Assembly (NCBI GenBank): GCA_029548865.1
Contig: JAKPMO010000004.1
Location: 160,001 to 224,000, forward strand
DNA from: Caldisericota bacterium
Lineage (GTDB): Bacteria > Caldisericota > Caldisericia > JAAYUI01
DNA length: 64,000 nt
Direction: 5' to 3'
Under the pieces are notes generated by a model, which was not told where the DNA came from, did not search any database, and worked only from the letters and a program-made list of their open reading frames with translations. The position numbers were made by a program, and so were the translations under genes. Shown here in pieces: positions 24,294 to 63,844 of the stretch; positions within the stretch are counted from its first letter, which is position 1, and each line of letters begins with the position of its first letter.

Positions 24294-26608
24294 CAGCTCA
24301 CCCAGGCAAGTCCTACTCTTTGTGCCATTTTTCCTTCAATACCTGTCCTAAGTTCTCTATTTTCTTTGAACCTCAACTCCGGGTCATGTTTAATGATATC
24401 CTCTGCGATTTCCCTTGCCAAGGAAAGAAGCGGGAAATTTGAAGGAGTGATGAGTCTTGATGAAGCAAGCATCGGCAGTCCAGACTGCATTGTTCCGCCA
24501 ATGTCTCCGGGTCCGCGCAATTTGAGGTCTTCCTCAGCAACCTCAAGGCCATTTGCTGTTCTTTCCAGAACTTGCAGTGAAACTGTCGGTCTTGACGGTA
24601 TCAGGAAGCAATAGCTTTTGTGCTCGCCCCTTCCAACCCTGCCCCTCAACTGGTGGAGCTGGGCCAGCCCGAACCTTTCAGCGTTTTCAATTATCATGAC
24701 CGTTGCATTCGGGACGTCTATTCCAACCTCAATGACGGTTGTCGAGACAAGAACCTTTAACTCCCTGTCCCTGAACTTGCACATTGTTTCATCCTTCTCT
24801 TTTGCCGGCATCCTGCCATGGAGCAGCCCGCACGGAATGCCTTTGAAATGTGACTCGGTAAGCTCAACGAACTGCTTTGTGGCGGCTTTTGCGGAGAGTT
24901 TTTCTGACTCTTCGACAAGAGGGCAGACAACGTAGACCTGCCTGCCTTTTTCTATTTCGGCGAGGGCCGTTTTGTAGGCGAGACTGCCTGCACCTGTGAG
25001 CACTTTTGTTTCTATAGTTGCCCTGCCCTTTGGCATTTCATCAACCACAGAGACGTCCAGATCACCGTAGATCGTCATGGCAAGCGTCCTCGGGATCGGG
25101 GTGGCACTCATGACGAGCACATGCGGGCAGAAGCCCTTTTTTGCTAGCCTGGCCCTCTGCAGGACGCCAAACCTGTGCTGTTCGTCAACAACCACAAGCC
25201 CGAGGTTTTCAAACTTCACCCAGTCCTCAAGGAGCGCATGTGTCCCAAAGAGGACGCATGGCTCTCCAGAGGAAAGCAGCTCAAATATCTTTTCCCTTGC
25301 CATTTTTTTTGATGAACCGGAGAGGTACGCAGTGTTGAACGGAAGTAATTTTCTGGCGACATTGTAGGTCTGGCTTGCAAGGATTTCTGTCGGCGCAATC
25401 CATGCAACCTGGTAGCCCAGCTTTGCGGCAGAGCTGCATGCACTCAAACCAACAACCGTCTTCCCAGAGCCAACATCTCCATGCAGGAGCCTGTTCATCG
25501 GCCTTCCCGACTCCAGGTCTTTTGCTATTTCCAGACAACATCTCTTCTGGGCTATGGTCGGCTCGAACGGAAGTTTTGAAAGGAAATCCTTTGAAGATTT
25601 TTGTGCACCCTTGATGATTGGAGCATCCTGCTGCCTGTACTCTGCCCTGCGGAGCAGGAGAGCCGTTTCCATGAGCAAAAATTCGTCCAACACGAGCCTT
25701 TTTTCGCAGAGTTTGAGTTGCTCAAAGTTGTCAGGGAAATGCACTTTCTCGTAGGATTCACGGAGGGATGGCAAAGACATGCTCTTCTTTACGGCATTAG
25801 GAAGGTAGCCATCACCAATCTCCGGCATGTTGTCGACGATTTTTTTGATTACGCTTCTTATGACCCACTGTGGGAGCCCAGTAGTCAGTGGATAGACCGG
25901 CACAATCCCCATGTCCTGTATGTCAGTGTCCAGATCGGGGTTTGTCATGTGTGGGCCGCCATAATCGCCCACTTTCCCATAGAGTGCCACTGTTTTCCCG
26001 ATGGCAAGCTTTTTCAGGACGTATGGGTTGTTGAACCATGTGGCCATTATTTTGCCGGTCGAGTCGCCAAAAAGCGCCTGCACAAAATTCCTTCCGGCAC
26101 GCGGTTCCCTGACATCAAGCACTTTTGCAAAGACAGTCGCTTCCGTTCCGGTGGAGAGCTGTGCAATAGGCAAGACCTTTGTTCTGTCTATAAATCTGAT
26201 GGGAAAATGGTTTAGGGCGTCCAGGACAGTCACAAGTCCAAGTTTTTTTAAGAGTTTTGCCCTCTCGGGGCCGATTCCTGGAATGGAAGCGAGAGACATT
26301 TCTGTACCCAGATGTATTTTTTGTTGCCTGGGTACCGGTTTCTGCCTGACATAATGGCCCCTGGCAAACTTTAACAGGTCATTTACGGCCTTTTCCCTTG
26401 ATGTGATATCCAGGGAGGTATAACTGGAAAAAACCTCAATAGCCCTTTTTATGCTGGCATTTTGACTGGGTTCGTCTTTTGCCCACTGGTCGAGCTTTGC
26501 CAGAACAAATTTTGAAAACCCGCCAAACACCGCCCTGTCATCGCAACCCCTCTCAAGCTCGGCCATTGCAGGGCCAAGGATGAGCGTTCTGACAGGAGAA
26601 AGACTCAT
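24293..26608 (-). CDS. recG: ATP-dependent DNA helicase RecG
   Basis: GDVGSGKT, DEQHRFG, MSATPIPRT, QLHQLRGRVGRG, DLKLRGPG. Confidence 0.96.
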   Translation of the reverse strand: MSLSPVRTLILGPAMAELERGCDDRAVFGGFSKFVLAKLDQWAKDEPSQNASIKRAIEVFSSYTSLDITSREKAVNDLLKFARGHYVRQKPVPRQQKIHLGTEMSLASIPGIGPERAKLLKKLGLVTVLDALNHFPIRFIDRTKVLPIAQLSTGTEATVFAKVLDVREPRAGRNFVQALFGDSTGKIMATWFNNPYVLKKLAIGKTVALYGKVGDYGGPHMTNPDLDTDIQDMGIVPVYPLTTGLPQWVIRSVIKKIVDNMPEIGDGYLPNAVKKSMSLPSLRESYEKVHFPDNFEQLKLCEKRLVLDEFLLMETALLLRRAEYRQQDAPIIKGAQKSSKDFLSKLPFEPTIAQKRCCLEIAKDLESGRPMNRLLHGDVGSGKTVVGLSACSSAAKLGYQVAWIAPTEILASQTYNVARKLLPFNTAYLSGSSKKMAREKIFELLSSGEPCVLFGTHALLEDWVKFENLGLVVVDEQHRFGVLQRARLAKKGFCPHVLVMSATPIPRTLAMTIYGDLDVSVVDEMPKGRATIETKVLTGAGSLAYKTALAEIEKGRQVYVVCPLVEESEKLSAKAATKQFVELTESHFKGIPCGLLHGRMPAKEKDETMCKFRDRELKVLVSTTVIEVGIDVPNATVMIIENAERFGLAQLHQLRGRVGRGEHKSYCFLIPSRPTVSLQVLERTANGLEVAEEDLKLRGPGDIGGTMQSGLPMLASSRLITPSNFPLLSLAREIAEDIIKHDPELRFKENRELRTGIEGKMAQRVGLAWVS

Positions 26609-27414
26609 AAGATAATCTGGGCTACAACAAAGAGGGCAACGCAGTAGGCCGCAAAGATGTAGAAATTGAATTTCTGGATGACCTTGAAGAACAGGAAAAA
26701 TGATAAGTAGCCAACAACGGCGGCCACCACAAAGCCAACTATGGAAGGCATCCAGTCAATCTGCATCCCTGAACTGGCCACCATTTTATAAACATCATAG
26801 AGTGTTTTTGCTGTTGCAGCGCCGACTGCAGGAATTGCAACAAGAAAAGCCAGTTTGGAAGATGATTTTTTGCCAAACCCCAACAGCCTGGCTGCGGTTA
26901 TTGTGGCGCCTGACCTTGATATGCCAGGAAACATGGCAATCGCCTGGGCACAGCCAACAGTTAGTGCATCGATCCATGTTGTTTCTTCAAGTTTGCGTTT
27001 GCCACTCATGAGAGAAGCAACTATGAGGAAAGCTGCAGTAACAAGCAAAAGGTAAGAGGTAGTTTTTGGGTCCTGGAAAACAGATTCAATCCTGCTTTCA
27101 AAGAGCAGGCCGAAGATGATTGCCGGTACAACTGAAAGTATGAGGTTGTATGAAAAAATCGAATCTGGCGGGAGACCCCTGCCAATCTTTGGCAAACCAG
27201 CAAAAAAGGCCTTTACATATTTGACTACTTCCGGCCAGAAAAAGACGATTATTCCAAGGAGCGTTCCAGCATGAAGGAACACATCGAACCACATCGGTGG
27301 TTTGCCCCACCCCAAAAAAGCGGGAACAAGGACAAGATGGGCAGAAGACGAGACCGGAATAAACTCTGTGAGACCCTGGACAAAGCCGAGGACCAATGCT
27401 TCAATGATTCCCAC
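26605..27414 (-). CDS. uppP: Undecaprenyl-diphosphate phosphatase
   Basis: VQGLTEFIPVSSSAH, PGISRSGAT. Confidence 0.95.
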   Translation of the reverse strand: MGIIEALVLGFVQGLTEFIPVSSSAHLVLVPAFLGWGKPPMWFDVFLHAGTLLGIIVFFWPEVVKYVKAFFAGLPKIGRGLPPDSIFSYNLILSVVPAIIFGLLFESRIESVFQDPKTTSYLLLVTAAFLIVASLMSGKRKLEETTWIDALTVGCAQAIAMFPGISRSGATITAARLLGFGKKSSSKLAFLVAIPAVGAATAKTLYDVYKMVASSGMQIDWMPSIVGFVVAAVVGYLSFFLFFKVIQKFNFYIFAAYCVALFVVAQIIL

Positions 27415-28163
27415 TATTTTGCCTCCAGAATGGACCTGCAGAATTCGAGGTCCTCTATTTTATCAACATCGACGCCCAGCTCCGGGCACTGCAATATTGG
27501 TGCTTTTATGGTAACGCCAAGCATTTTTGAAATTCTCTTTTCAAGCTCGGGTATTTCGACATTTTTGAACAAAAGCAATCTCAGAAGGAACGGCACACCA
27601 AGCTGGAGGGCCTGTTTTATGGCGGACTTTCTCCTCTTTGATGTTTCCTCGACTATTGGCTCCACCTTTTTGTAGGCGGTTTTGCTGATGTAGAAGAGGT
27701 TTCCGATTTTGACATTTCCCTCTTTGATGCGGAGAAAAGTGCGCTTTGTTCCGGGGAACATCCTCAGGGTGTCTTCTTTGGTTATGATTGGCAAACCAAG
27801 ATCACACCCTGTTTTCTGGAGTGCAGAAACCACCATGTCAAAGGTTTTTTCGGTTACCAGCGGGATGTCGTTTGTTGTCACAACGAGATACTCTGTCTCT
27901 GAGGCATCCACAAGGCGATCTATGTTTGCCTTCTGGCTGTCGCCCTCTTCCAGCATCAGGTCCACTTTTGATTTTATGGAATCCGGATAGCCGTTGCCAA
28001 CAAGGATGATCCTGTTCGTGAGGGAAGCCTTGCGAAGCGCATCGATGACGTACTCAATCGATGGTTTTCCTGCAAATGAAAGCATGCCCTTGTTGGGCAC
28101 GCCCTCATTTGCGAACCACGGCTCTACTCCGCCGCCGCCTAATATTGCAAAATCGATTTTCAT
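27414..28163 (-). CDS. MobA/CofC-like nucleotidyltransferase family protein
   Basis: AILGGG...NKGML...GKP, NDIPL, C-terminal DVDKIEDL. Confidence 0.75.
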   Translation of the reverse strand: MKIDFAILGGGGVEPWFANEGVPNKGMLSFAGKPSIEYVIDALRKASLTNRIILVGNGYPDSIKSKVDLMLEEGDSQKANIDRLVDASETEYLVVTTNDIPLVTEKTFDMVVSALQKTGCDLGLPIITKEDTLRMFPGTKRTFLRIKEGNVKIGNLFYISKTAYKKVEPIVEETSKRRKSAIKQALQLGVPFLLRLLLFKNVEIPELEKRISKMLGVTIKAPILQCPELGVDVDKIEDLEFCRSILEAK

Positions 28164-30493
28164 TTTGGATATGTCAGCGTTATCTTTCTTGTGGCGCCTT
28201 CCCAGGCCACACCTGCCCCAAGAGCCTCTCCGACAAATCTTAGCGGTAACATGGTTTTTGCGCTAATGATTGTTGGATAGAGCTTTTGGGCCTTTGAGTC
28301 GATGAAGACCTCTTTGCCATTTATCTTGGCGGTTTTCTTGCCAATCCACAACTCAACGATGTTTTTCCCATTCCAGAGCGATTGCGTCAGGGTGACCTTT
28401 TTTTCTGCACCATCATAGCCAACCTGTGCTCCAAGGGCCTCTGCGACTTCCCTTATTGGCATGTATGTGCTCCCGCCAAGTTCTTTCGGAAGCGGTGGCG
28501 AGGAAGATGTTGGAGCAGTTTTGAGTGTCACCTTCAGGCCGTTTATAGTGATGTCTGTTTTGTCCAGCCATAATTCTATTGTGACGGCATAAATTACATC
28601 GACCGTTATTTTTTTGTTCTGGCTGCCCAGTGTCGCCGAGATCTCGAACTTGTTGAGTCCTGGGATAAGTATTACTGAGTAGTTAGCCTTTCCATTCTGA
28701 TCCACGGTTGCCGGCTTGCCACCAACCATCACTGTTGCTCCCTTTGTTGTGGAGATAGGGATTGTGTAGCTTGGAGAAGTGGTTCTCAATGGAGTACCAG
28801 AGGAACCATTGACCGAGAGATCAAGAAGTGCTGCAGACTCGACCAATACTTTAACAGGAACAACAATTTTTCCTGCGTTGGAGTCAATTGTCACTTCGCC
28901 TGTCAAGGCACCTTCCGTGTTCGGCTCTAACGTGATGTTTATCTTGCATCTGTCACACTTGAATGATGAAGGATCAACTTTTATCCATGGAGCGCTCGCA
29001 GTAATTGTTCCCTCGAGCATTCCGCCTTCGCCAGCCTGCTCGATGATTTCGATCTGGAGTGATTTTTTTGTGTTCTTTGGTATTTTGCCAAAATCCAGCT
29101 CTGAAGGCTCCACCTTCAGAATCATTCCGGATTTTTTGTAGGTGAAATTTACCGCAATTTCTGAATTTCCGCCGTTGCTTCCAATCGACAGCTTCCCTGA
29201 ATATGGTCCCGGTTCGAGACCAAGTGGGTCAACGGTCATGATTGTTTCAAAAGAACCATCTGGCTCGATCTCGAATTCCGAATTTTCAGTCCTGAGCCAT
29301 GACTCTGAAGACTTGATGGTCGCTGAAAGTTTTCCGGTTCCAACGTTTTTGAAAGCGAGCTTTTTGGTTATGGTTGTCGAAATCTCACCGAGGTCAAACG
29401 ATTTTTCTGCGACTTCAAGCTTTGGCTCTTCGGCCACTTTTTCGCATTCAAACTTCCAGATGATGTTGCCAATCAGTTTTTCGCCTGATTTTGATTTTAT
29501 GCCGGACTGGCCGCTTTTTGCGTAGAGCGTATACTTCTTGCCCTCTTCAAAAGCCTTGTTTGGAGCAAACGTGCACTTTGACCCTGAGACAGACGCTTTT
29601 CCAGGAACAGCGAGGCCATTCTGGTCAACCAGGAGCACCGTGCCCTCGTTGAATGTTGCAGGGTCCATATCCTTGTCAAATGGTAGCGAAAGTGGCGAGT
29701 TTGGCGATACCTTGCCAGGAAGCGGACTGGTGAGATGCGGTGCTTTGATTTTCCATGCGCCATAGGCATAAACCTCGAATGTGTCCTGATCGAATATCGC
29801 AACCGCGGCACCTAATTCTTCTTTTGTCCAGTCTTCTTTGAGATCAAAACTGGCTGTGAGCTTCTTGGTTTCGCCATTTTTGATGCGCATGGTTGAACCC
29901 TTTGCAGAGGGCTTGATTGCATGCACGACATGTTGGAAATACTGGTCTTCCCTGTCCACATTGTCTTCAAAGAGGAAGAAGGTATATCTGAGTGTTGCCT
30001 GGTCGAGAGGACCAAACTGCTCAACCATGGCCTCAAAATCGATCTTTTGCCCTGCGGCTTCTTCCTTCAGTTTCCCATTCAGCGAAATATTGAAGCTCAA
30101 GGGTGAAGAGCGGACCTTTGAAACCGTGTCCTCAACTTCCTTTTCAGTCATACCCGACCTCTTTATGAAATTGCCATTAAAAGCTATCGTCGGATAAGAC
30201 TTTCTTTCGTACATCTGCCCCCTTTTGTCGACTTCTTCAATGTAAAACTCGTCGTTGGGGTTTGAATGCAGCCTTAATTTGATAATAGAGTCCGAGCCAA
30301 GTTCAGACTCGAGTTTGTCCATACTGCGCACGGCAGTGTGACACTTCGTTCAGTTCGGCTCCACAAAAATTTCGCAGAATGCTGCACGTTTCGGAGTGAA
30401 ATCTGAAACGGAGAGCGGCATTGTCCTCGAGTAGACCTGGACGGTCTGTGAAAGTATGAGAGAAAGCAGAACAATTACTGACAGTTTTTTCAC
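28160..30493 (-). CDS. Probable exported selenoprotein (777 aa): signal peptide, Trx/Omp28-like UxxC domain, Ig-like repeats, stalk domain
   Basis: AAGGAGG SD, GTG 30493 overlapping the alr stop; MKKLSVIVLLSLILSQ...AAFCEIFVEPN-UGA(30352-30350)-TKCHTAVRSMDKL continues in frame into the 723-aa ORF. Confidence 0.85.
30316..30343 (-). promoter_or_regulatory. Putative bacterial SECIS element
   Basis: UGUCAC-ACUGC-[CGUGC]-GCAGU-AUGGACA hairpin; apical loop begins 17 nt after UGA with G at loop position 2. Confidence 0.65.
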
Positions 30494-31620
30494 AGCTCGG
30501 CCTCCTTTCCTGATTGTTTGTAAACAAATTTAGTCCTGCCACCAAGACCAGTCAAGATTTCATATGGGGTGGTTCTCAGGACCTCAGATAAATCTTTTAC
30601 AGTAACAGCCTCATCGGTATCTTTTCCAATGAGCGTTACCCTGTCTCCAACCTCAACTCCTGGAATATCTGTTACGTCAATCATGAACTGGTCCATGCAG
30701 ATTCTTCCTACTATTTTGGTTTTTTTGCCCTGAACCAGCACGAAACCACCATTTTTTAGGTTCCATCTCCATCCATCGGCGTATCCTACGGGCACAGTTG
30801 CGATGACTCTTGTAGAATCAGCGATAAAATCCCTGCCGTAGCCGACACTTTCACCCTTGTGGATGACTTTCATGTCGCAAACAACGGAAGTCCATGAAAG
30901 AATCGGCAGAAGTTCCTGGTCGAACCTGCCGCCAACTGGCACCCCGTAGAGCATCATGCCTGGCCTGACCATGTCAAAATGATACTCCGGATAGTTCATT
31001 GTTGCAGATGATGCAGAAGCATGAAGCATTGGTGATGCCCCCATTGCCTTTGCCTCAAGGGCCACTGCAGTGAACAGGTCAGCCTGGCGCTTTGTGAATT
31101 CAGGATCAGAATCAGCCACAGCAAAGTGGGTAAACAGACCACTGATCCTTATTTTTGGGAGCTTCATTACACTTTTTATGAACGGCACCGAGTCCTTGAC
31201 CGATATTCCGGCCCAGCACATGCCTGTATCAACCTTTATGTGTACCGGTACCGGAGCAGGTGTTAGCCTGTCAAGTTCCACTGCAAGCTGGTAGTCAAAA
31301 ATGGTTGGGGTGATCTGGTAATGGAGTATGTCAGAAGCATAGGCAGAGTGGGTATAGCCAAGTATGAGTATTGGGCAGACAACACCCCCTGCCCTTAATT
31401 TGATTGCCTCCTCCGGGGTCTGGACGGCAAGCCAGTCTGCCCCGTTATGGGCAAGAGCCTGCGCGATTGCGACATCACCGTGCCCATAGGCATTGGCTTT
31501 GACAACAGCCATCACCTTTGGCGCCCGGGAGATCCTCCTCACCAGGCCAAGGTTTGATATCAGCCTGTCGATATCTACCGTTGCCAGTGATGGCAATACT
31601 TTCTCTGGTGCAAGACTCAT
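30490..31620 (-). CDS. alr: Alanine racemase
   Basis: AVVKANAYGHG, HIKVDTGM, VGYG, GRICMDQ. Confidence 0.96.
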   Translation of the reverse strand: MSLAPEKVLPSLATVDIDRLISNLGLVRRISRAPKVMAVVKANAYGHGDVAIAQALAHNGADWLAVQTPEEAIKLRAGGVVCPILILGYTHSAYASDILHYQITPTIFDYQLAVELDRLTPAPVPVHIKVDTGMCWAGISVKDSVPFIKSVMKLPKIRISGLFTHFAVADSDPEFTKRQADLFTAVALEAKAMGASPMLHASASSATMNYPEYHFDMVRPGMMLYGVPVGGRFDQELLPILSWTSVVCDMKVIHKGESVGYGRDFIADSTRVIATVPVGYADGWRWNLKNGGFVLVQGKKTKIVGRICMDQFMIDVTDIPGVEVGDRVTLIGKDTDEAVTVKDLSEVLRTTPYEILTGLGGRTKFVYKQSGKEAEL

Positions 31621-34339: not shown

Positions 34340-35730
34340 CAGTCCTCCTTTTGTCCAGTAGCGGCCGCTTTCCTGATAATAATTATTGGAGTCTGGTCAT
34401 CCTCGTTGCCAGCGGGATTATCGGCCATGAATTGCTCAAGCTCTTTCTTGTCTACGCCGTCAGAGGCGCCAACCGCCCAGGCTATTCCCATGTCGTTGGC
34501 ATCAATGATTGCGGCCTCAAAACCAGTTTTTTCCTTTATTATCTGGGCAAGCTTGTCGCTGTTGTATGGCCCTGGTATGACAAAATAATCGTAGGGTGCC
34601 ATTGATGCCGGCATGTCATCTATCATTGCGACCTCGGGTCCTGCCACCATATAAAACCAGCCCTTTTTGCCAATCAATTTACCCAAAGCGCCGCAGAACG
34701 TTGCAAAAAGTATTTTTAGGAGTCCTGCTATTTCAATTGCCACCTGGAAGGAGAGCGGATTTGCAAGGGGCGAAGTTGTGGCAAAAGAATTTTTTGATGA
34801 AGCTGTTACGAAACCAGAAAGCATCCTCGCGATCCTTGTGGGTTGGATTGTTTCCGCAGAGTAGATCCTTGCCTGTGTTATTGCAGCCACAGCAGAAGCA
34901 AATGTTACTATGTCACCTTTTTGGGCAATGCCTTTTATTGATTCTATAATAACTTGTGCTGCATCATCTTCCTCGGTGATGATTTTTGTTTTTACGGGTA
35001 TCTTTACCGAGCCAGGTTTTGACGGAAGAGGCGGTTTCAGGATTATCATTTTTGCCTCATCCGGAAACACCCTCTCGATCTCTTTTAGACATTTTCTGCC
35101 TTTTCTTCTCCTGGTACCCTCTTTCCAGATTTCCAGGGCTTTTTCTTTCTGGCCAGTTTTTTCGTAGCATTGGCCAAGCAGAACAAAGTCGGTCTCATAG
35201 AAATTTGATGGTTCGAGTCTTTTGAACTCCTCGAAATACCAGATTACATCCTTGAAACGACCAAGCTCAAAAAGGCAATGCGAAATCCTTTTTAAAAGGT
35301 ACCTGTAAATTGAGAGTATGTCTCTCCTGAGGTGCTCCTTGCCAATGTCCATCCCTTTCACATACACCTGAAAGGCGGCCTCAAGGTCCTTTTTATGGTA
35401 GTAATAAACATCGCCCATTGAAAGGTAATACCAGTACTGCGTTGGTCTCTGGTCAAAGGTTTTTTGTAGCAGGTCAATGGCCTTCTGGTATTCACCAGAA
35501 ACACTGTAGATTCTGGCCAGCAATCTCACCGAACGCGGATAGTTGCAACCACCACGGTCAACCACCTTTTCAAGAAAAGCTGTGGCTTGTTTTTCCTTTC
35601 CAGTCTTTCTCAGTGCTTTGCAGTACAGCTCTGCATCTCTGTCCGAGGTTCTTGCTGGGTCTGGGTTTCGATAGGCTTTGACAATATTTTCATAATCATT
35701 TGATTCGAGATATTTTCTATACGATGGCAT
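34339..35730 (-). CDS. TPR-repeat protein fused to a CofE-like (F420-0:gamma-glutamyl ligase family) domain
   Basis: N-terminal ~235 aa of TPR-like helices; C-terminal IPVKT..I, GDIV, IDD, IIDAND, DNPAGN..QTPIIIIR. Confidence 0.72.
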   Translation of the reverse strand: MPSYRKYLESNDYENIVKAYRNPDPARTSDRDAELYCKALRKTGKEKQATAFLEKVVDRGGCNYPRSVRLLARIYSVSGEYQKAIDLLQKTFDQRPTQYWYYLSMGDVYYYHKKDLEAAFQVYVKGMDIGKEHLRRDILSIYRYLLKRISHCLFELGRFKDVIWYFEEFKRLEPSNFYETDFVLLGQCYEKTGQKEKALEIWKEGTRRRKGRKCLKEIERVFPDEAKMIILKPPLPSKPGSVKIPVKTKIITEEDDAAQVIIESIKGIAQKGDIVTFASAVAAITQARIYSAETIQPTRIARMLSGFVTASSKNSFATTSPLANPLSFQVAIEIAGLLKILFATFCGALGKLIGKKGWFYMVAGPEVAMIDDMPASMAPYDYFVIPGPYNSDKLAQIIKEKTGFEAAIIDANDMGIAWAVGASDGVDKKELEQFMADNPAGNEDDQTPIIIIRKAAATGQKED

Positions 35731-36271
35731 CCTGATCTTCCTGCGCCAGTCCTGTTCTTTCAACCAGCTCAAATAATTTTATCAAAACATTTTTTACAGA
35801 TTTCTTGTCCTTGGCAACACATGATACAACCTCAACACTGTCATCAATTCCGAGCATCTGCCCGACCTGCTCCGGGTTTAGGGAACCTGTGACATCTTGT
35901 TTGTTTGCCGCAACAACACACGGTATCTGGAGTTTTGGCAAAAAGAATGAAAGATAACGCCTTGCTTCTATAATTGACTTGTAATCTGCAGAATCAACAA
36001 TCAGCACCATACCTACGGCCCCGACGGAAAGGACATCCCACATGTATGAAAATCTCTCCTGCCCTGGTGTTCCAAAGATATAAAGCACAAGATCATCATC
36101 AATTGTCAGCCTTCCAAAATCAAGTGCGACTGTTGTCTGGTTTTTTATAACCCTTGTTTCGTCTGTTACTGCCTTCTCTGTTGAAACAACAGGTATTTCA
36201 GAAACCGATTTAATTAAACTTGTTTTGCCGGATGAGAACGGCCCGGTCACAAGTATTTTGATTCTTTTCAT
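35717..36271 (-). CDS. Small Ras-like GTPase (MglA/CvnD-type)
   Basis: GPFSSGKT, TTVALDFG, GTPGQERF, ANKQD. Confidence 0.9.
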   Translation of the reverse strand: MKRIKILVTGPFSSGKTSLIKSVSEIPVVSTEKAVTDETRVIKNQTTVALDFGRLTIDDDLVLYIFGTPGQERFSYMWDVLSVGAVGMVLIVDSADYKSIIEARRYLSFFLPKLQIPCVVAANKQDVTGSLNPEQVGQMLGIDDSVEVVSCVAKDKKSVKNVLIKLFELVERTGLAQEDQDAIV

Positions 36272-36909
36272 AGTTTCCTGAGATAATCAATAATTTTTGA
36301 TATGAATGATGGTTTGGATTTTGGATCGTTTGGTTTTGGCTGAACCGTGTCTGTTCTTTGTTTGACCGCAGCCCTTCTTATGACTCCAACCTGCAAAAGT
36401 GAATAAAAAATTCTGATTGCATCAAATTCTGGCCAACCAAGGTCTTTGCTGATGTCGCCCAGGGATTTCTCGCCATCTATGAGCCCGATCACCTGCCACT
36501 GCTTTGAATCAAAAACGAGATCATAGGTTTCGAACTCCAACGAAAGTGAATAAATGATGTTGGTGGAGGGAATTTCACGCCTCAGGGTCTCGTAAAGTTT
36601 TATTCTTCCAGAGGCCTCCAGTAGTAGCTGGTCCATTGAAACAATGATGTTTGTTTCAGGACTGTTTTCATCACTTATGAACCTGAAGCTGCCGTTTTCC
36701 GCCTCGCATATCGCGAAAAAGGCCTCCTTGCCGTTCTGGTTGTCCGCAAAAGCGGCTGTTATGCCGCCATTCATAAAAAAAACTGATGCTTCAAACCTTC
36801 TTCCGGACTGCTCCAGAAAAAGCTGGAGCTTGCCGGTTCGTTTTGAAATCCAAATAAACTGGCATATTTCTATGACTGAAAAATCTTTGATGTTGCCTGC
36901 AAGTTCCAT
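36268..36909 (-). CDS. DUF4388 domain protein with winged-helix-like C-terminus
   Basis: LAGNIKDFSVIEICQFI...RTGKL...FMNG...GSFRF; QWQVIGLIDGEKSL. Confidence 0.8.
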   Translation of the reverse strand: MELAGNIKDFSVIEICQFIWISKRTGKLQLFLEQSGRRFEASVFFMNGGITAAFADNQNGKEAFFAICEAENGSFRFISDENSPETNIIVSMDQLLLEASGRIKLYETLRREIPSTNIIYSLSLEFETYDLVFDSKQWQVIGLIDGEKSLGDISKDLGWPEFDAIRIFYSLLQVGVIRRAAVKQRTDTVQPKPNDPKSKPSFISKIIDYLRKL

Positions 36910-45858: not shown

Positions 45859-46221
45859 GTGGAACTGGACACAATTCTTGAAGGATTGAAGGACGAGCTC
45901 CCCGAATTCGTTGCTGCGGCCGTTGCAGGTAGTGATGGCCTGACAATCTCGACCCTCGCAAAAGATAGCTCGGTTGACATGAGTATGGTAGGGGCCGAAT
46001 TTGCCTCGATTGTCTCGATGGTTTCAAAGGCAGGGAGAGAAATAAACGCAGGGAAGCTTCACAGTTCAATCTTCTCGACAGAAAATTATCACATCCTGAC
46101 TTCACAAATTGGTGAAACTCCATTCTTCCAGATAGTCTGCCTCAAATCCGATGGGAACATTGGAAAAGCAAGATATTTAATGGGAAAGGTTGAGGCTAGA
46201 ATCAAGGAAGCAATTCTATGA
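45859..46221 (+). CDS. Roadblock/LC7 (MglB-like) protein
   Basis: AAAVAGSDGLTI...GAEFAS...GNIGKARYLM; GGAGG SD then GTG 45859. Confidence 0.85.
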   Translation: MELDTILEGLKDELPEFVAAAVAGSDGLTISTLAKDSSVDMSMVGAEFASIVSMVSKAGREINAGKLHSSIFSTENYHILTSQIGETPFFQIVCLKSDGNIGKARYLMGKVEARIKEAIL

Positions 46222-47468
46222 GTGAGATAAACGGGCTACTGTCAGAGGCTTTTTCAAAGATTCAGTATTGCGACAAGATACTTGTAGCATCATCAGACGG
46301 CCTCATTATAACGGCATACCCTGACTACAATCCGGACAAAAACGATTCCCTCGCTGCATCATCAACATCTGTCCTTGGGCTTACCGCTGCAACATCCGAG
46401 CTTGCTGGAAAAGGTGATGCCGAGTACGTCCTCATAAGGTCAAACAACGGCTTCATGATGACACTGGGTCAACAGAATTTCTCTGTGCTTGTAATGGCCG
46501 GGCAAAAAGCAAACCTCGGCATGCTCCTGCTTCAGGGGCAGAAACTTGTTGAAAAGCTCAGTGGTATAATTGATGAACACATTGCACCAAAAAAACTTGA
46601 ACACCCAAGAATTTATGCCAGAGAGCTTGGCACCATTGAAACTGAGAGTGTTGAAGAAATACACCCTGAAGAGGTTTCTTACACTTCCACAAAATCCAGG
46701 GATTCACAGCCTGAATCAGAATCTCCCGAACAGGGCATAGGCATACCTGCCTTTTCAAAACCGTTTTCTGATTATTCCAAAGAACCTGGCGACAGCTTTT
46801 TGGCCGGTTCACAGGGTTATGAAGAAGAACCCATCGCCATAGAACCCAATTTCAAACCAAAAATGGAAGATGTGCAGGATGTCTTGCAACAACCTGTCGA
46901 GGAAATTACCTGTCATGAAGAGTGCAACGAATGCGAAGAATGCGAAGAACCGGATGAATCGGAGCACTTCCTGACAGAACCCGAGGAGATAAAAGCAAAA
47001 TTCTGGCCGGAAGAGCCAACCAGAATTGATGAACATCCAGAACACACTCCAGATATTGAAATTGAGGAAAAATCCTCGGAGAGCATTTATTCTGACCGGG
47101 ATCTCCAGGCGCCAGAAGAAAATCCAACAGAGCCAATGGAAGAGCCGATAATAGAACCAACGGAGGAGAATCCAGAAGAAACGCACGAAAACATGACAAC
47201 ATCTCCAATCGTTGACCTCGTTCTGCCTAAAGGCATTTACATAAACGATGTAGTCTTATACTCGAATAAACAGGGGCTGGAAAACCTGGTTGTCCATAAA
47301 GAAGAGGAACAGTCCACACAACAAGAAGATCAACAACAGGAAGAAGAACAAAAACCTCCTGAAGCCATGCCATGGTTTAACTTTAATAATAATGGCGAGA
47401 ACAAGACTCAAAACCCGGAAGAAGACGAAAAGCCCCAAAAAGAAGGAGACCTGTTCGATTCTTACTGA
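46218..47468 (+). CDS. Roadblock/LC7 domain protein with long acidic tail
   Basis: VASSDGLIITA...LAASS...KANLGMLLL in the first ~118 aa; remainder E/P/Q-rich low complexity. Confidence 0.8.
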   Translation: MSEINGLLSEAFSKIQYCDKILVASSDGLIITAYPDYNPDKNDSLAASSTSVLGLTAATSELAGKGDAEYVLIRSNNGFMMTLGQQNFSVLVMAGQKANLGMLLLQGQKLVEKLSGIIDEHIAPKKLEHPRIYARELGTIETESVEEIHPEEVSYTSTKSRDSQPESESPEQGIGIPAFSKPFSDYSKEPGDSFLAGSQGYEEEPIAIEPNFKPKMEDVQDVLQQPVEEITCHEECNECEECEEPDESEHFLTEPEEIKAKFWPEEPTRIDEHPEHTPDIEIEEKSSESIYSDRDLQAPEENPTEPMEEPIIEPTEENPEETHENMTTSPIVDLVLPKGIYINDVVLYSNKQGLENLVVHKEEEQSTQQEDQQQEEEQKPPEAMPWFNFNNNGENKTQNPEEDEKPQKEGDLFDSY

Positions 47469-60752: not shown

Positions 60753-60773
60753 CAGACAGGCAAGGAAACAAGA

Positions 60774-61869
60774 ATGTTGATAGACGAAATACAGAGGTCC
60801 ATAGATCAGGTAAAAGAACGGCTCAACCAGGCCAAGGAGTTTCTTTGACCCGCTAAAGGCTGAACGGGAAAAACTTTCAAAACAGCTGGAGTCTCCAGAG
60901 GTCTGGAATGACCAGCAAAAAATTGCCGAGACCAACAAAAAAATTGCCATATTCGATATCAAACTCAATGACCTGGAACAGGCCGAACATTTCATTGGCG
61001 AAGCCGAAGTTTACATGGAGTTTGTCCAGATGGGCGAGGGCTCAGAGAAAGAGCTTCTTGGCGCAATAAAACAGGCCGAGGCAAAGATACAGGAAATAGA
61101 GCTCAAAAACCTCCTCTCCATGGAGCATGACCAGCTCAATGCCTTTGTTTCATTCAGCTCCGGTGCAGGCGGAGTCGACGCCCAGGACTGGACTGAAATG
61201 CTCATGAGGATGTACACAAGGTGGGCAACCAACAAGGGTTTCAAGGTTACTGTTGCTGAATACAGCCCTGGCGATGAGGCTGGTGTCAAATCAGCAACCC
61301 TCCACATCGAGGGCCCGTATGCCTTTGGTTTCCTCAAGAGCGAAAAGGGTGTCCACAGACTGGTCAGGATTTCCCCGTTTGACGCTAACCACAGAAGGCA
61401 CACCTCATTTTCACTCGTTGAGGTGCTCCCGGAGCTCCCGCCTGCAGAAGATATTGAAATAAACCCCGATGATTTGAGGATTGACACGTTCAATGCTTCA
61501 GGCCACGGTGGTCAAAACGTCCAGAAGAACGATACTGCTGTCAGGATAACGCATATACCAACCGGCCTTGTGGTGGCATGCCAGAATGAACGTTCACAGG
61601 GTCTCAACAGGGCCATGGCCATGAAAATCCTCTCATCAAGATTACAGGACCTGGCAAATGTCCAGCTTGCAGAGGAAGAGAAAAAACTCAGGGGGCCAAG
61701 GGTCTCAATTGAGTGGGGCAACCAGATACGCTCCTATGTTCTTCAGCCTTACACTCTCGTAAAAGACAACAGGACAGGCTATGAGGTAGGAAGTGTCGAC
61801 AGAGTTCTTGAGGGTGACCTGGATGAACTTATCTGGGCCTACCTGAAATGGGCGGTAAAAAACAAATGA
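60774..61869 (+). CDS. prfB: Peptide chain release factor 2, programmed +1 frameshift at 60843-60849
   Basis: 24-codon ORF ending AGGAG-TTT-CTT-TGA-C; +1 frame continues into the ORF with SPF and GGQ motifs. Confidence 0.96.
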
Positions 61870-63728
61870 CCAAAAGGAGCTTTATTGTCGGAACAGCAGG
61901 ACACGTTGACCACGGGAAATCAACCCTTGTCACAAGACTGACCGGTACTGATCCCGACAGGCTCCCTGAAGAAAAAGCCAGACAGATGACGATCGAGCTT
62001 GGTTTTGCAAAGCTTGACCTCCCCTCCGGAAGGATGTGTGGAATCGTTGATGTGCCAGGCCACGAGAAACTGGTCAAACAGATGCTCATGGGCGCACAAG
62101 GGTTTGACCTGGTAATGTTCACTGTTGCATGTGATGAAGGACCAAAACGCCAGACCTATGAACATCTATCAATCCTGGATATGATTGGGATCCGGGTTGG
62201 TGTCATTGTGCTGACAAAATGTGATTTGCCCCACGACGATGCAGTTTTGCAATCACAACTCGATTCAATGCTTACAAACACCTCTCTCGAGGCAATGCCA
62301 AGAATAAAGGTTTCAGCCTACACTGGGGAAGGGATCGACGAACTCAGGCAAACTATCGATGATCTGCTTGACCATGCTATCCCAAGACCTCTTAATATGC
62401 CAGCGTTCTATCCAGTTGATAGAGTATTTACAGTCAAGGGATTTGGAATAGTGACCACCGGCACCCTCTGGCAGGGCCAGGTGAAAAAGGGTGAAGAGCT
62501 GGAGATATTCCCTTCAAGGAAAAAAGGCAAATTGAGAGGGATAGAGAGTTTTGATGCCCAGATTGAAACTGGTGATGCTGGTTCAAGGCTTGCCCTCAAT
62601 TTTCAAAACCTCGATAAGGAAGACATTTCAAGGGGAAACATTCTTGCCACCCCTGGGAGATTTGACCCGACAACAGAATTTGATGCAAAAATTCGCCTCA
62701 TTGAAAAAGTGAAAAGGCGTACAAGGCTAAAGTTCCATTATGCAACTATCGAGCAGGAAGTTGATTACAGCGATATAGGAGGTGGTTTTGCAAGAATAAA
62801 ATTGGAAGGGCCGCTCCCCCTCACAAAGGGTTCCAGATTTATCCTGAGGTCGATTGCCCCGGCAGATACGGTTGGCGGTGGTGAAGTGGTAGACCTCCAC
62901 CCAGAGGGTAAGCTCAATGCCCCGGAAACGCTCCAGAGACTTGAAAATATCGGCCAGATTGATGATGAAAGCTATCTTTCAACGATGGTTTTTGAGCGTA
63001 GGAAATCAGGTTTTGAAGTGTCCAGGCTCAGAGGGCTTGTAAACTGGCCAGATGACAGATTTGCATTGTTTCTCAAAAATGGCCCCCATAAGACAATATC
63101 CGGCAATCTCTATGACAACAATGTTTTTGATTCATCATCAGCAAAATTGAGCAAATTGCTGACAGATTTCTTCAAATCGAACCCGTCCAGGAATTCCATT
63201 TCAAAAAGCGAGGCAAAAGCCAAGCTGATGCCGGAGATAAACGAGAATCTTTTTTCAGAAATCCTTTTGACTGCCATAAAAGAGCCATTGCACATGATTG
63301 GTCAGGATATATCCCTTTCAAATCAGACCATACAAAAATCACAAACCGAGGTTGGAATAGAAAGAGAACTCCTGAGAGAGATGTTCTCCCCTCCAACTCT
63401 CTCGGAGCTCAGAAAAATACCTGCTTTTTCCAGAAACCTGCGTGAAACCGAAGCAGCAATTTCAAAAATGATCGCGGAGAAAATAATAATCAAATCTGTA
63501 GATGATCTTTTCTTTCACAAAAAAGCTGTGGTAAAGGCTTATCTAATAATGAAAGCACTCATAGAAAAAGATGGTTCAGCCAAACTCGCACAGTACAGGG
63601 ACGAAGTAGGTACAACTAGAAAGTATGCCCAGGCAATGCTGGAGCTACTTGATGCCCTTGGCTTAACAAGAAGAGTAGGTGAAACCAGAGTGCTCGGTTA
63701 TAAGACTCTTGACATTGGTGGTAAATAG
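61866..63728 (+). CDS. selB: Selenocysteine-specific elongation factor
   Basis: GTAGHVDHGKS, DRLPEEK, DVPGHE, C-terminal winged helix TRKYA...LD; adjacent to tRNA-Sec. Confidence 0.95.
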   Translation: MTKRSFIVGTAGHVDHGKSTLVTRLTGTDPDRLPEEKARQMTIELGFAKLDLPSGRMCGIVDVPGHEKLVKQMLMGAQGFDLVMFTVACDEGPKRQTYEHLSILDMIGIRVGVIVLTKCDLPHDDAVLQSQLDSMLTNTSLEAMPRIKVSAYTGEGIDELRQTIDDLLDHAIPRPLNMPAFYPVDRVFTVKGFGIVTTGTLWQGQVKKGEELEIFPSRKKGKLRGIESFDAQIETGDAGSRLALNFQNLDKEDISRGNILATPGRFDPTTEFDAKIRLIEKVKRRTRLKFHYATIEQEVDYSDIGGGFARIKLEGPLPLTKGSRFILRSIAPADTVGGGEVVDLHPEGKLNAPETLQRLENIGQIDDESYLSTMVFERRKSGFEVSRLRGLVNWPDDRFALFLKNGPHKTISGNLYDNNVFDSSSAKLSKLLTDFFKSNPSRNSISKSEAKAKLMPEINENLFSEILLTAIKEPLHMIGQDISLSNQTIQKSQTEVGIERELLREMFSPPTLSELRKIPAFSRNLRETEAAISKMIAEKIIIKSVDDLFFHKKAVVKAYLIMKALIEKDGSAKLAQYRDEVGTTRKYAQAMLELLDALGLTRRVGETRVLGYKTLDIGGK

Positions 63729-63752: not shown

Positions 63753-63844
63753 GGGAGCGGTTGGGCTCTGGTGGGCCTCCTGGACTTCAAATCCAGTGTG
63801 GGGTGAACTCCCCGGGTAGGTTCGATTCCTATGCGCTCCCGCCA
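63753..63844 (+). tRNA. selC: tRNA-Sec (TCA)
   Basis: CTGGA-CTTCAAA-TCCAG anticodon arm, 6-bp D stem with TGGT loop, long variable arm, G73 plus CCA. Confidence 0.95.

Follow-up and report, generated by a model that had tools for sequence, protein, structure and literature searches.

A predicted selenocysteine-containing Omp28-type thioredoxin head on a stalk-domain protein in one family of Caldisericota

The present analysis concerns a gene in the genome of a Caldisericota bacterium (assembly GCA_029548865.1, hereafter G000), located on contig JAKPMO010000004.1, of which a stretch of 64,000 nucleotides (positions 160,001-224,000; hereafter the window, with coordinates counted from its position 1) was examined. 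The gene carries a single in-frame TGA that almost certainly encodes selenocysteine (Sec), and its product is a protein of 777 amino acids in which a thioredoxin-like head of the U-x-x-C type is followed by immunoglobulin (Ig)-like and BACON-like domains and a C-terminal stalk domain. The locus had been called as an open reading frame (ORF) of 723 amino acids; the full frame starts 54 codons further upstream at a GTG that overlaps the stop codon of alr (GTGA), and its own stop (28162-28160) overlaps the ATG of the next gene. The TGA at codon 48 (30352-30350), in the context E-P-N-U-T-K-C-H, is the sole internal stop of the 777-codon frame. The ribosome-binding site, the overlapping GTG, the 54-codon extension and the position of the TGA had been proposed in an earlier reading of the letters alone (the sequence-only reading), and all these coordinates were confirmed. 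The features of the gene are listed below.

28160..30493, minus strand: full gene, 777 amino acids with TGA48 as Sec, GTG start at 30493
30501..30507, minus strand: Shine-Dalgarno sequence AAGGAGG, 7 nt ahead of the GTG (from the sequence)
30428..30493, minus strand: predicted signal peptide, about residues 1-22 (hydrophobicity; N-termini of orthologues)
30350..30352, minus strand: in-frame TGA, codon 48, predicted Sec, the U of U-T-K-C (orthologue and homologue alignment)
30341..30343, minus strand: Cys51, second residue of UxxC (invariant in two alignments)
30323..30337, minus strand: hairpin ACUGC-[CGUGC]-GCAGU resembling a selenocysteine insertion sequence (SECIS) (covariation)
30107..30391, minus strand: thioredoxin-fold domain, about residues 35-129 (structure model)
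30188..30199, minus strand: S-Y-P-T loop, Pro101 at the thioredoxin cis-Pro position (Pro invariant in 58 aligned sequences)
29744..30100, minus strand: Omp28/HBP35-type beta-sandwich, about residues 132-250 (fold comparison)
29450..29713, minus strand: Big_5 Ig-like domain, residues 261-348 (Pfam PF13205, E 1.8e-10)
29171..29419, minus strand: BACON/ASH-like domain 1, BACON_2, residues 359-441 (PF19190, E 2.2e-9; PF22544)
28841..29137, minus strand: BACON-like domain 2 (PF13004 below cut-off; choice_anch_D weak)
28589..28825, minus strand: putative further Ig-like domain, about residues 557-635 (PF09136 in one orthologue)
28178..28477, minus strand: copper-amine-oxidase N-terminal (Cu_amine_oxidN1/stalk) domain, residues 673-772, predicted envelope anchor (PF07833, E 3e-26)

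The head of the protein was found in 19 of the 41 relatives searched, and 11 of these are orthologues (36-100% identity), each with a single TGA. They make up an entire Caldisericia family (f1) of three genera, and a profile search of 93 genomes of the phylum returned the same 11. The TGA occupies the identical alignment column in all 11 orthologues. Among the weaker matches of the phylum, 19 of 21 were inspected and all 19 carry CxxC at the TGA column, as do all 132 distant homologues aligned over the motif among 150 database representatives, the other 18, among them six whose sequence starts only beyond the TGA, being unaligned at this place. A scan of metagenomes added only four loci, identical or close to the known orthologues and all with TGA. 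The public sequencing runs in which the gene occurs derive from sludge, digesters and wastewater, and in contigs from all four runs examined (three RNA libraries and one DNA library) the codon at 30350-30352 shows no other letter; contigs of the RNA libraries cover the gene, a coverage that is no proof of transcription. Since the TGA is kept in every orthologue and no other letter occurs in the run contigs, it is attributable neither to chance nor to a sequencing error. The proposal that Sec stands where the first Cys of a thioredoxin-fold CxxC belongs is borne out by these alignments together with the covariation of the hairpin described below; contrary observations were sought and none was found, as the codon is never TGT, TGC or TGG, the homologues keep Cys or Sec together with the upstream segment, and selA and selD are present in the genome.

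The upstream segment also provides the signal-like N-terminus that had been expected of it. An N-terminus of the form MK/MR-K-hydrophobic is common to all 11 orthologues, the strongest hydrophobic windows of 13 residues in the whole protein begin at residues 1-7, and the hydrophobic stretch is followed by no Cys of a lipobox. Gene callers truncate the protein, as anticipated: the nearest database relatives (six and four more, 10 clusters) all begin after the TGA, and the gene model given here corrects these 10 closest public protein clusters, which lose the active site through the late start.

The hairpin that follows the codon has a 5-bp stem and a 5-nt loop (N-G-U-N-N, with the G-U invariant), the loop lying 17 nt after the UGA. 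All 45 pairing cells across nine distinct sequences are paired, and four of the five pairs are changed on both sides (ACUGC/GCAGU, CCGAU/AUCGG, CCUAC/GUAGG), while slid control positions pair at 13-38% against 100% at the hairpin. It matches the consensus model of bacterial SECIS elements presented in PMC13188914. Of the 72,264 TGA triplets of the genome, just 1234 are followed by a comparable hairpin with a GT loop, and in the selD genes the TGA is likewise followed, at a similar distance, by a G-loop hairpin. Several observations reduce the weight of the hairpin: folding of single sequences reveals no unusual stability (z -0.01 to -1.3), an energy of -7.5 kcal/mol is reached in nine of the 11 orthologues and missed in two, the equivalent region of the Cys paralogues folds about equally well, and the covariation rests on few lineages and lies inside coding sequence. 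For the first three of these reasons, only the covariation is counted as evidence.

The machinery for Sec insertion is encoded in the same genome. Its two components within the window, already recognised in the sequence-only reading, were recovered with Pfam, ARAGORN and Rfam.

61848..63728, plus strand: selB (Pfam SelB wing and beta-barrel domains)
63753..63844, plus strand: tRNA-Sec, anticodon TCA (ARAGORN; Rfam RF01852, 78.6 bits)

Other contigs encode selA and a selD that contains a TGA, so that selA, selB, selC and selD are all present. Across the phylum, selD occurs in 11 of the 93 genomes, which are exactly those of family f1, with TGA in all 12 copies; selA occurs in 11 of the 41 genomes searched, and a tRNA-Sec of at least 69 bits in 10 of the 11 family genomes, all remaining scores being 49 bits or lower. 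In another family (f3), matches of 47-49 bits were not accepted as tRNA-Sec because selD is lacking there. The related genomes are not independent, and the co-occurrence is therefore counted once and not eleven times. The Sec trait can thereby be assigned to one family of Caldisericota; a full-text literature search returned no published report of it in this phylum, though BSepDB or Haft and Tolstoy 2025 may list it. According to PMC13326102, Caldisericia genomes were screened for BSepDB.

That the TGA is instead a true stop (of a pseudogene, or of a short peptide ahead of a protein of 720 amino acids that is started anew), or is translated as Cys or Trp, is extremely improbable: public collections do contain solely forms beginning after it, and TGA is an ordinary and indeed the commonest stop of the genome (ending 361 of the 827 ORFs of at least 300 amino acids), but neither TAA, TAG, TGG nor TGY is ever seen at the codon in the orthologues, the sequence is conserved on both flanks, a re-started form would be left without signal peptide and active site, the hairpin covaries, the TGA orthologue co-occurs exactly with selD, and the release factor RF2 and a tRNA-Trp(CCA) are both encoded in the genome.

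The Sec genes of the source genome are scattered over three contigs. selA (locus L252, G000:C19:184000-199000) has nifS/nifU-like genes and dxs in its vicinity and is distant from selB/selC and selD. prfB, encoding RF2, is situated directly upstream of selB and tRNA-Sec (window about 60770-61869, plus strand) and contains CTT-TGA-C near 60842-60848, which we take to be a +1 frameshift site. The single-contig relative G006 has two selD copies (C1:1000572-1001486 and 1657703-1658614), both with TGA, the second reading V-G-U instead of A-G-U.

To survey the remaining selenoproteins, all TGA triplets of the source genome and of G006 (102,193) were scanned for coding signal, start and hairpin, and 61,486 read-through peptides of the source genome were compared with G006, the raw comparison being dominated by off-frame noise. 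After exclusion of rRNA rows, 73 non-shadow rows were conserved on both sides, of which three were judged on inspection to be true in-frame coding: selD, the Omp28-type stalk gene described above and a second exported candidate.

G000:C23:79995-80525 (locus L253:1501-2031), plus strand: second exported selenoprotein candidate, 177 amino acids (TGA scan)

This candidate has a signal-like start and a G-U-C or G-U-GGGGG-C motif (G-U-x5-C in genus g2), after which come a poly-Pro linker and a single Ig-like domain weakly resembling the Mo-co dimer domain. Because the U closely follows the hydrophobic stretch, it might conceivably act in the manner of a lipobox residue. The TGA is present in all 11 family genomes and is followed by a G-loop hairpin, which is the weaker evidence here as it sits in low-complexity Gly/Pro codons. 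The candidate passes no NCBIfam cut-off and could be placed in no catalogued family; its six database relatives are short forms, and the five inspected all begin after the TGA. FdhA-type molybdopterin oxidoreductase, SelU and YqeB were detected in none of the five family genomes tested (of 11), while the controls were detected. As the source genome is 93% complete, the strict TGA filter missed two of three known selD genes, and such scans see Sec near the C-terminus poorly, the count of three selenoproteins is a lower bound, which we think is close to complete. The family thus appears to retain its selenium machinery in large part for the two exported proteins. In G006, two loci (L206, minus strand, 2645; L170, plus strand, 19142) contain in-frame TGAs between coding-like stretches, with hairpins and no Cys motif; these are probably nonsense mutations.

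The domain organisation of the Sec protein was examined with Pfam, NCBIfam and structure prediction. The head was modelled with U as C from a 58-row alignment (mean predicted local distance difference test, pLDDT, 93.7), replacing an earlier nine-sequence model of pLDDT 56, and the thioredoxin fold suggested from the sequence was recovered, with thioredoxins matched at Z 7-9; Pro101 would adopt the cis geometry by analogy of position in the model. The closest structure is HBP35 (PDB 5y1a; Foldseek E 2.3e-12, TM 0.80; Z 24.0 with a root-mean-square deviation of 2.4 over 214 residues), the next unrelated rows being at Z 8, and Omp28 (2r2c) is matched at Z 9.7. The expected Omp28-like beta domain is supported by this fold match and by weak matches to NCBIfam Omp28 models. 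The best of these is NF045500 (residues 3-249, E 7.5e-9, 35.4 bits against a curated cut-off of 200), and NF033782, the Omp28 family outer membrane lipoprotein, scores 22 bits against 150. Pfam gave neither an Omp28 nor a thioredoxin match above noise for the head, a sequence search of the PDB returned no relative of it, and the Pfam and NCBIfam scans found no tail for type IX secretion (T9SS), the C-terminus being PF07833. As to the domain order proposed earlier, Big_5, the first BACON domain and the stalk domain were identified by Pfam, while the second BACON domain stays below the cut-off and is missing from the three genomes of genus g3, which have shorter orthologues; the last Ig-like domain is not matched by Pfam in the source protein and is putative, one orthologue carrying PF09136.

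The sequence-only reading did not recognise the architecture among described selenoprotein families. This holds for the combination, and not for the head, which is of the kind known from GOS_C, a thioredoxin-like UxxC family of 74 Sec sequences with no function known in the account of Zhang and Gladyshev 2008 (PMC2398784) and described from marine metagenomes. GOS_C corresponds to NF045500, 'Omp28-related selenoprotein', in Table 1 of PMC13188914, and GOS_C/Omp28 selenoproteins are still listed as predicted in a 2026 review; our full-text search found no paper joining selenoprotein and Omp28. The Caldisericia protein and GOS_C have in common the thioredoxin fold with an Omp28 beta domain, a UxxC motif in which Sec precedes Cys, and a hairpin after the UGA; by visual comparison, the U of a published GOS_C representative (a row of the supplement of PMC12013277) falls at the corresponding position. 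The Caldisericia protein differs in its stalk tail, BACON spacers and E-P-N-U-T-K-C motif. NF045500-like matches occur in 37 of the 93 phylum genomes, none of which passes the cut-off. The novelty thus lies in the Caldisericia branch, which is divergent and sits on a stalk scaffold, the Omp28-type UxxC head being already known, as are exported bacterial selenoproteins such as SaoB, SaoX and SaoC (bioRxiv 2022.07.06.499078). Being compact and folding well, the head lends itself as a model for testing the GOS_C/Omp28 selenoproteins.

Proteins of this fold with Sec are widely distributed. A scan of GTDB genomes with one motif gave 74 loci (L063-L136), and 70 of the 76 matches, in 68 loci, are of the Omp28 type, with FTATW-U-xx-C in Planctomycetota, Acidobacteriota, Marinimicrobia, Coatesbacteria and other phyla. 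Sec stands at the identical column in these proteins and 61 of the 70 have a G-loop hairpin equally far downstream, whereas the 1.5 kb flanks examined contain no stalk domain at any of the 74 loci. Among 14 tested, 13 match NF045500 at 37-85 bits, none reaches its cut-off and one matches the T9SS tail model; Sec in the Omp28-type fold therefore exceeds the curated family, and a large uncatalogued group of Sec proteins exists. Loci L093/L094 contain two tandem copies. Within Caldisericota, Cys paralogues have the same head (some of them stalk-tailed in the source genome) at about 20-27% identity, mostly with W-C-G-x-C, and occur also in families without selA/selD.

A phylogenetic tree was inferred, with the Sec/Cys column masked, from 32 of the 64 distinct Sec heads of other phyla (a biased, one-motif choice), 35 Cys representatives, 41 Caldisericota Cys heads and 11 rows of the Sec clade; it contains no NF045500 member above the cut-off. 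The Caldisericia Sec forms group in a single clade with strong support and a long branch. An independent replacement of Cys by Sec in Caldisericia looked possible (support 77) but collapsed when two long rows were omitted, and a single origin shared with the other Omp28-type selenoproteins was not rejected (approximately unbiased test, p 0.66).

HBP35 of Porphyromonas gingivalis is an exported, proven surface thioredoxin whose head has the same two domains; it differs from the Sec protein in its CxxC, its C-terminal domain for type IX secretion and an identity of 14%. Its reduction of insulin needs both Cys residues (PMC2907840).

The stalk domain (PF07833) is abundant in the source genome, with 88 ORFs, most having signal-like N-termini by eye. 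Cys is present in all 88, at a content of 1.6% as compared to 1.27% in 371 background ORFs; one of them, on contig C19, has 148 Cys in 1799 amino acids. No bias towards even numbers of Cys was observed (38 even, 50 odd), the start calls being crude and the many Cys blurring the signal. DsbB and VKOR were found in none of the five genomes tested, and all five encode a CcdA-type DsbD_TM protein, beside exported thioredoxin-like genes, a distribution that favours a reducing branch and raises the question of how the redox state of many Cys-rich envelope proteins is controlled without detectable DsbB/VKOR. In the source genome, two exported thioredoxin-like genes and a CcdA-type gene (locus L273, G000:C17:146840-150460) are followed by ArsP permease- and Acr3-like ORFs (by eye); this gene set is a candidate electron source for the Sec head.

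The Sec protein is very likely exported and its head probably performs thiol-disulfide chemistry. On balance, we favour its assignment as a putative envelope disulfide reductase or isomerase that is fed by CcdA and acts on the Cys-rich stalk proteins. SelB would recognise the hairpin and Sec48 be inserted, and the signal peptide would direct the chain out of the cell. Stalk domains are predicted envelope anchors; that of the Sec protein is presumed to hold it in the envelope, at the surface as the sequence-only reading proposed or perhaps in the periplasm, with the Ig and BACON domains spacing the head from the anchor. Sec48 would then attack a substrate disulfide, Cys51 would resolve the intermediate, and the CcdA-type membrane protein, together with the exported thioredoxins, could return the head to its reduced state. 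Reductases and peroxidases typically have Sec as the attacking residue, and this position, the presence of CcdA without DsbB/VKOR and the lack of an even-Cys bias suggest the reductase or isomerase activity, with which the insulin reduction by HBP35, a protein of matching fold, agrees. This proposal is least secure as to the direction of the chemistry and the substrates. Four Cys-only Omp28-type paralogues in the genome could perform the same job, the conserved neighbours alr, bacA and tldD/pmbA point to no redox substrate, and CcdA may serve another purpose, as its gene adjoins arsenic-resistance-like genes; all three weigh against it. A wider reading, in which the Sec machinery of the family serves the envelope only, so that besides SelD the two exported selenoproteins form a DsbB/VKOR-independent redox system for the cysteines of about 88 stalk proteins, is possible but doubtful.

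That the protein targets small molecules in the envelope (peroxide, polysulfide or sulfur, metals, heme) instead of other proteins is unlikely. The active-site region differs from that of all relatives, with E-P-N in place of T-A-T-W, and this divergence together with the long branch suggests a changed specificity; sludge, digester and wastewater as sources of the gene would also suit such substrates, and HBP35 binds hemin, through its C-terminal, non-thioredoxin part (PMC2907840). Thioredoxins that act on protein disulfides have two redox residues and a Pro loop, all of which the head nevertheless retains. Quite unlikely, too, is a disulfide-forming oxidase that would build disulfides in the Cys-rich stalk proteins independently of DsbB/VKOR. 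Cys in every stalk ORF, in genomes where neither enzyme was found, agrees with this, as does the U-x-x-C-H of several orthologues, and, according to work cited in PMC2907840, a dsbA mutant of Escherichia coli is complemented by a plasmid with hbp35; an HBP35-type fold can therefore also oxidise, a further point against the reductase. However, no re-oxidising partner was found, the Cys counts of the stalk ORFs, within the limits stated above, are not biased to even numbers, and Sec occupies the attacking position.

The surroundings of the gene are conserved. In all nine relatives fetched (of 10), it lies between alr and the NTP-transferase/bacA genes, and the full-length orthologues, of 683-790 amino acids, always end in the stalk domain. 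Database clusters of the adjacent genes bear the name Caldisericia in their sources.

30490..31620, minus strand: alr, conserved upstream neighbour, adjoining the gene in 9/9 relatives fetched
26605..28163, minus strand: NTP-transferase and bacA/uppP, conserved downstream neighbours in 9/9 relatives fetched

Elsewhere in the window, an MglA-like small GTPase (ATP_bind_1/Arf/Ras) with DUF4388 and TPR genes is encoded about 10 kb from a Roadblock/LC7 protein (35717-36909, minus strand; 46218-47468, plus strand).

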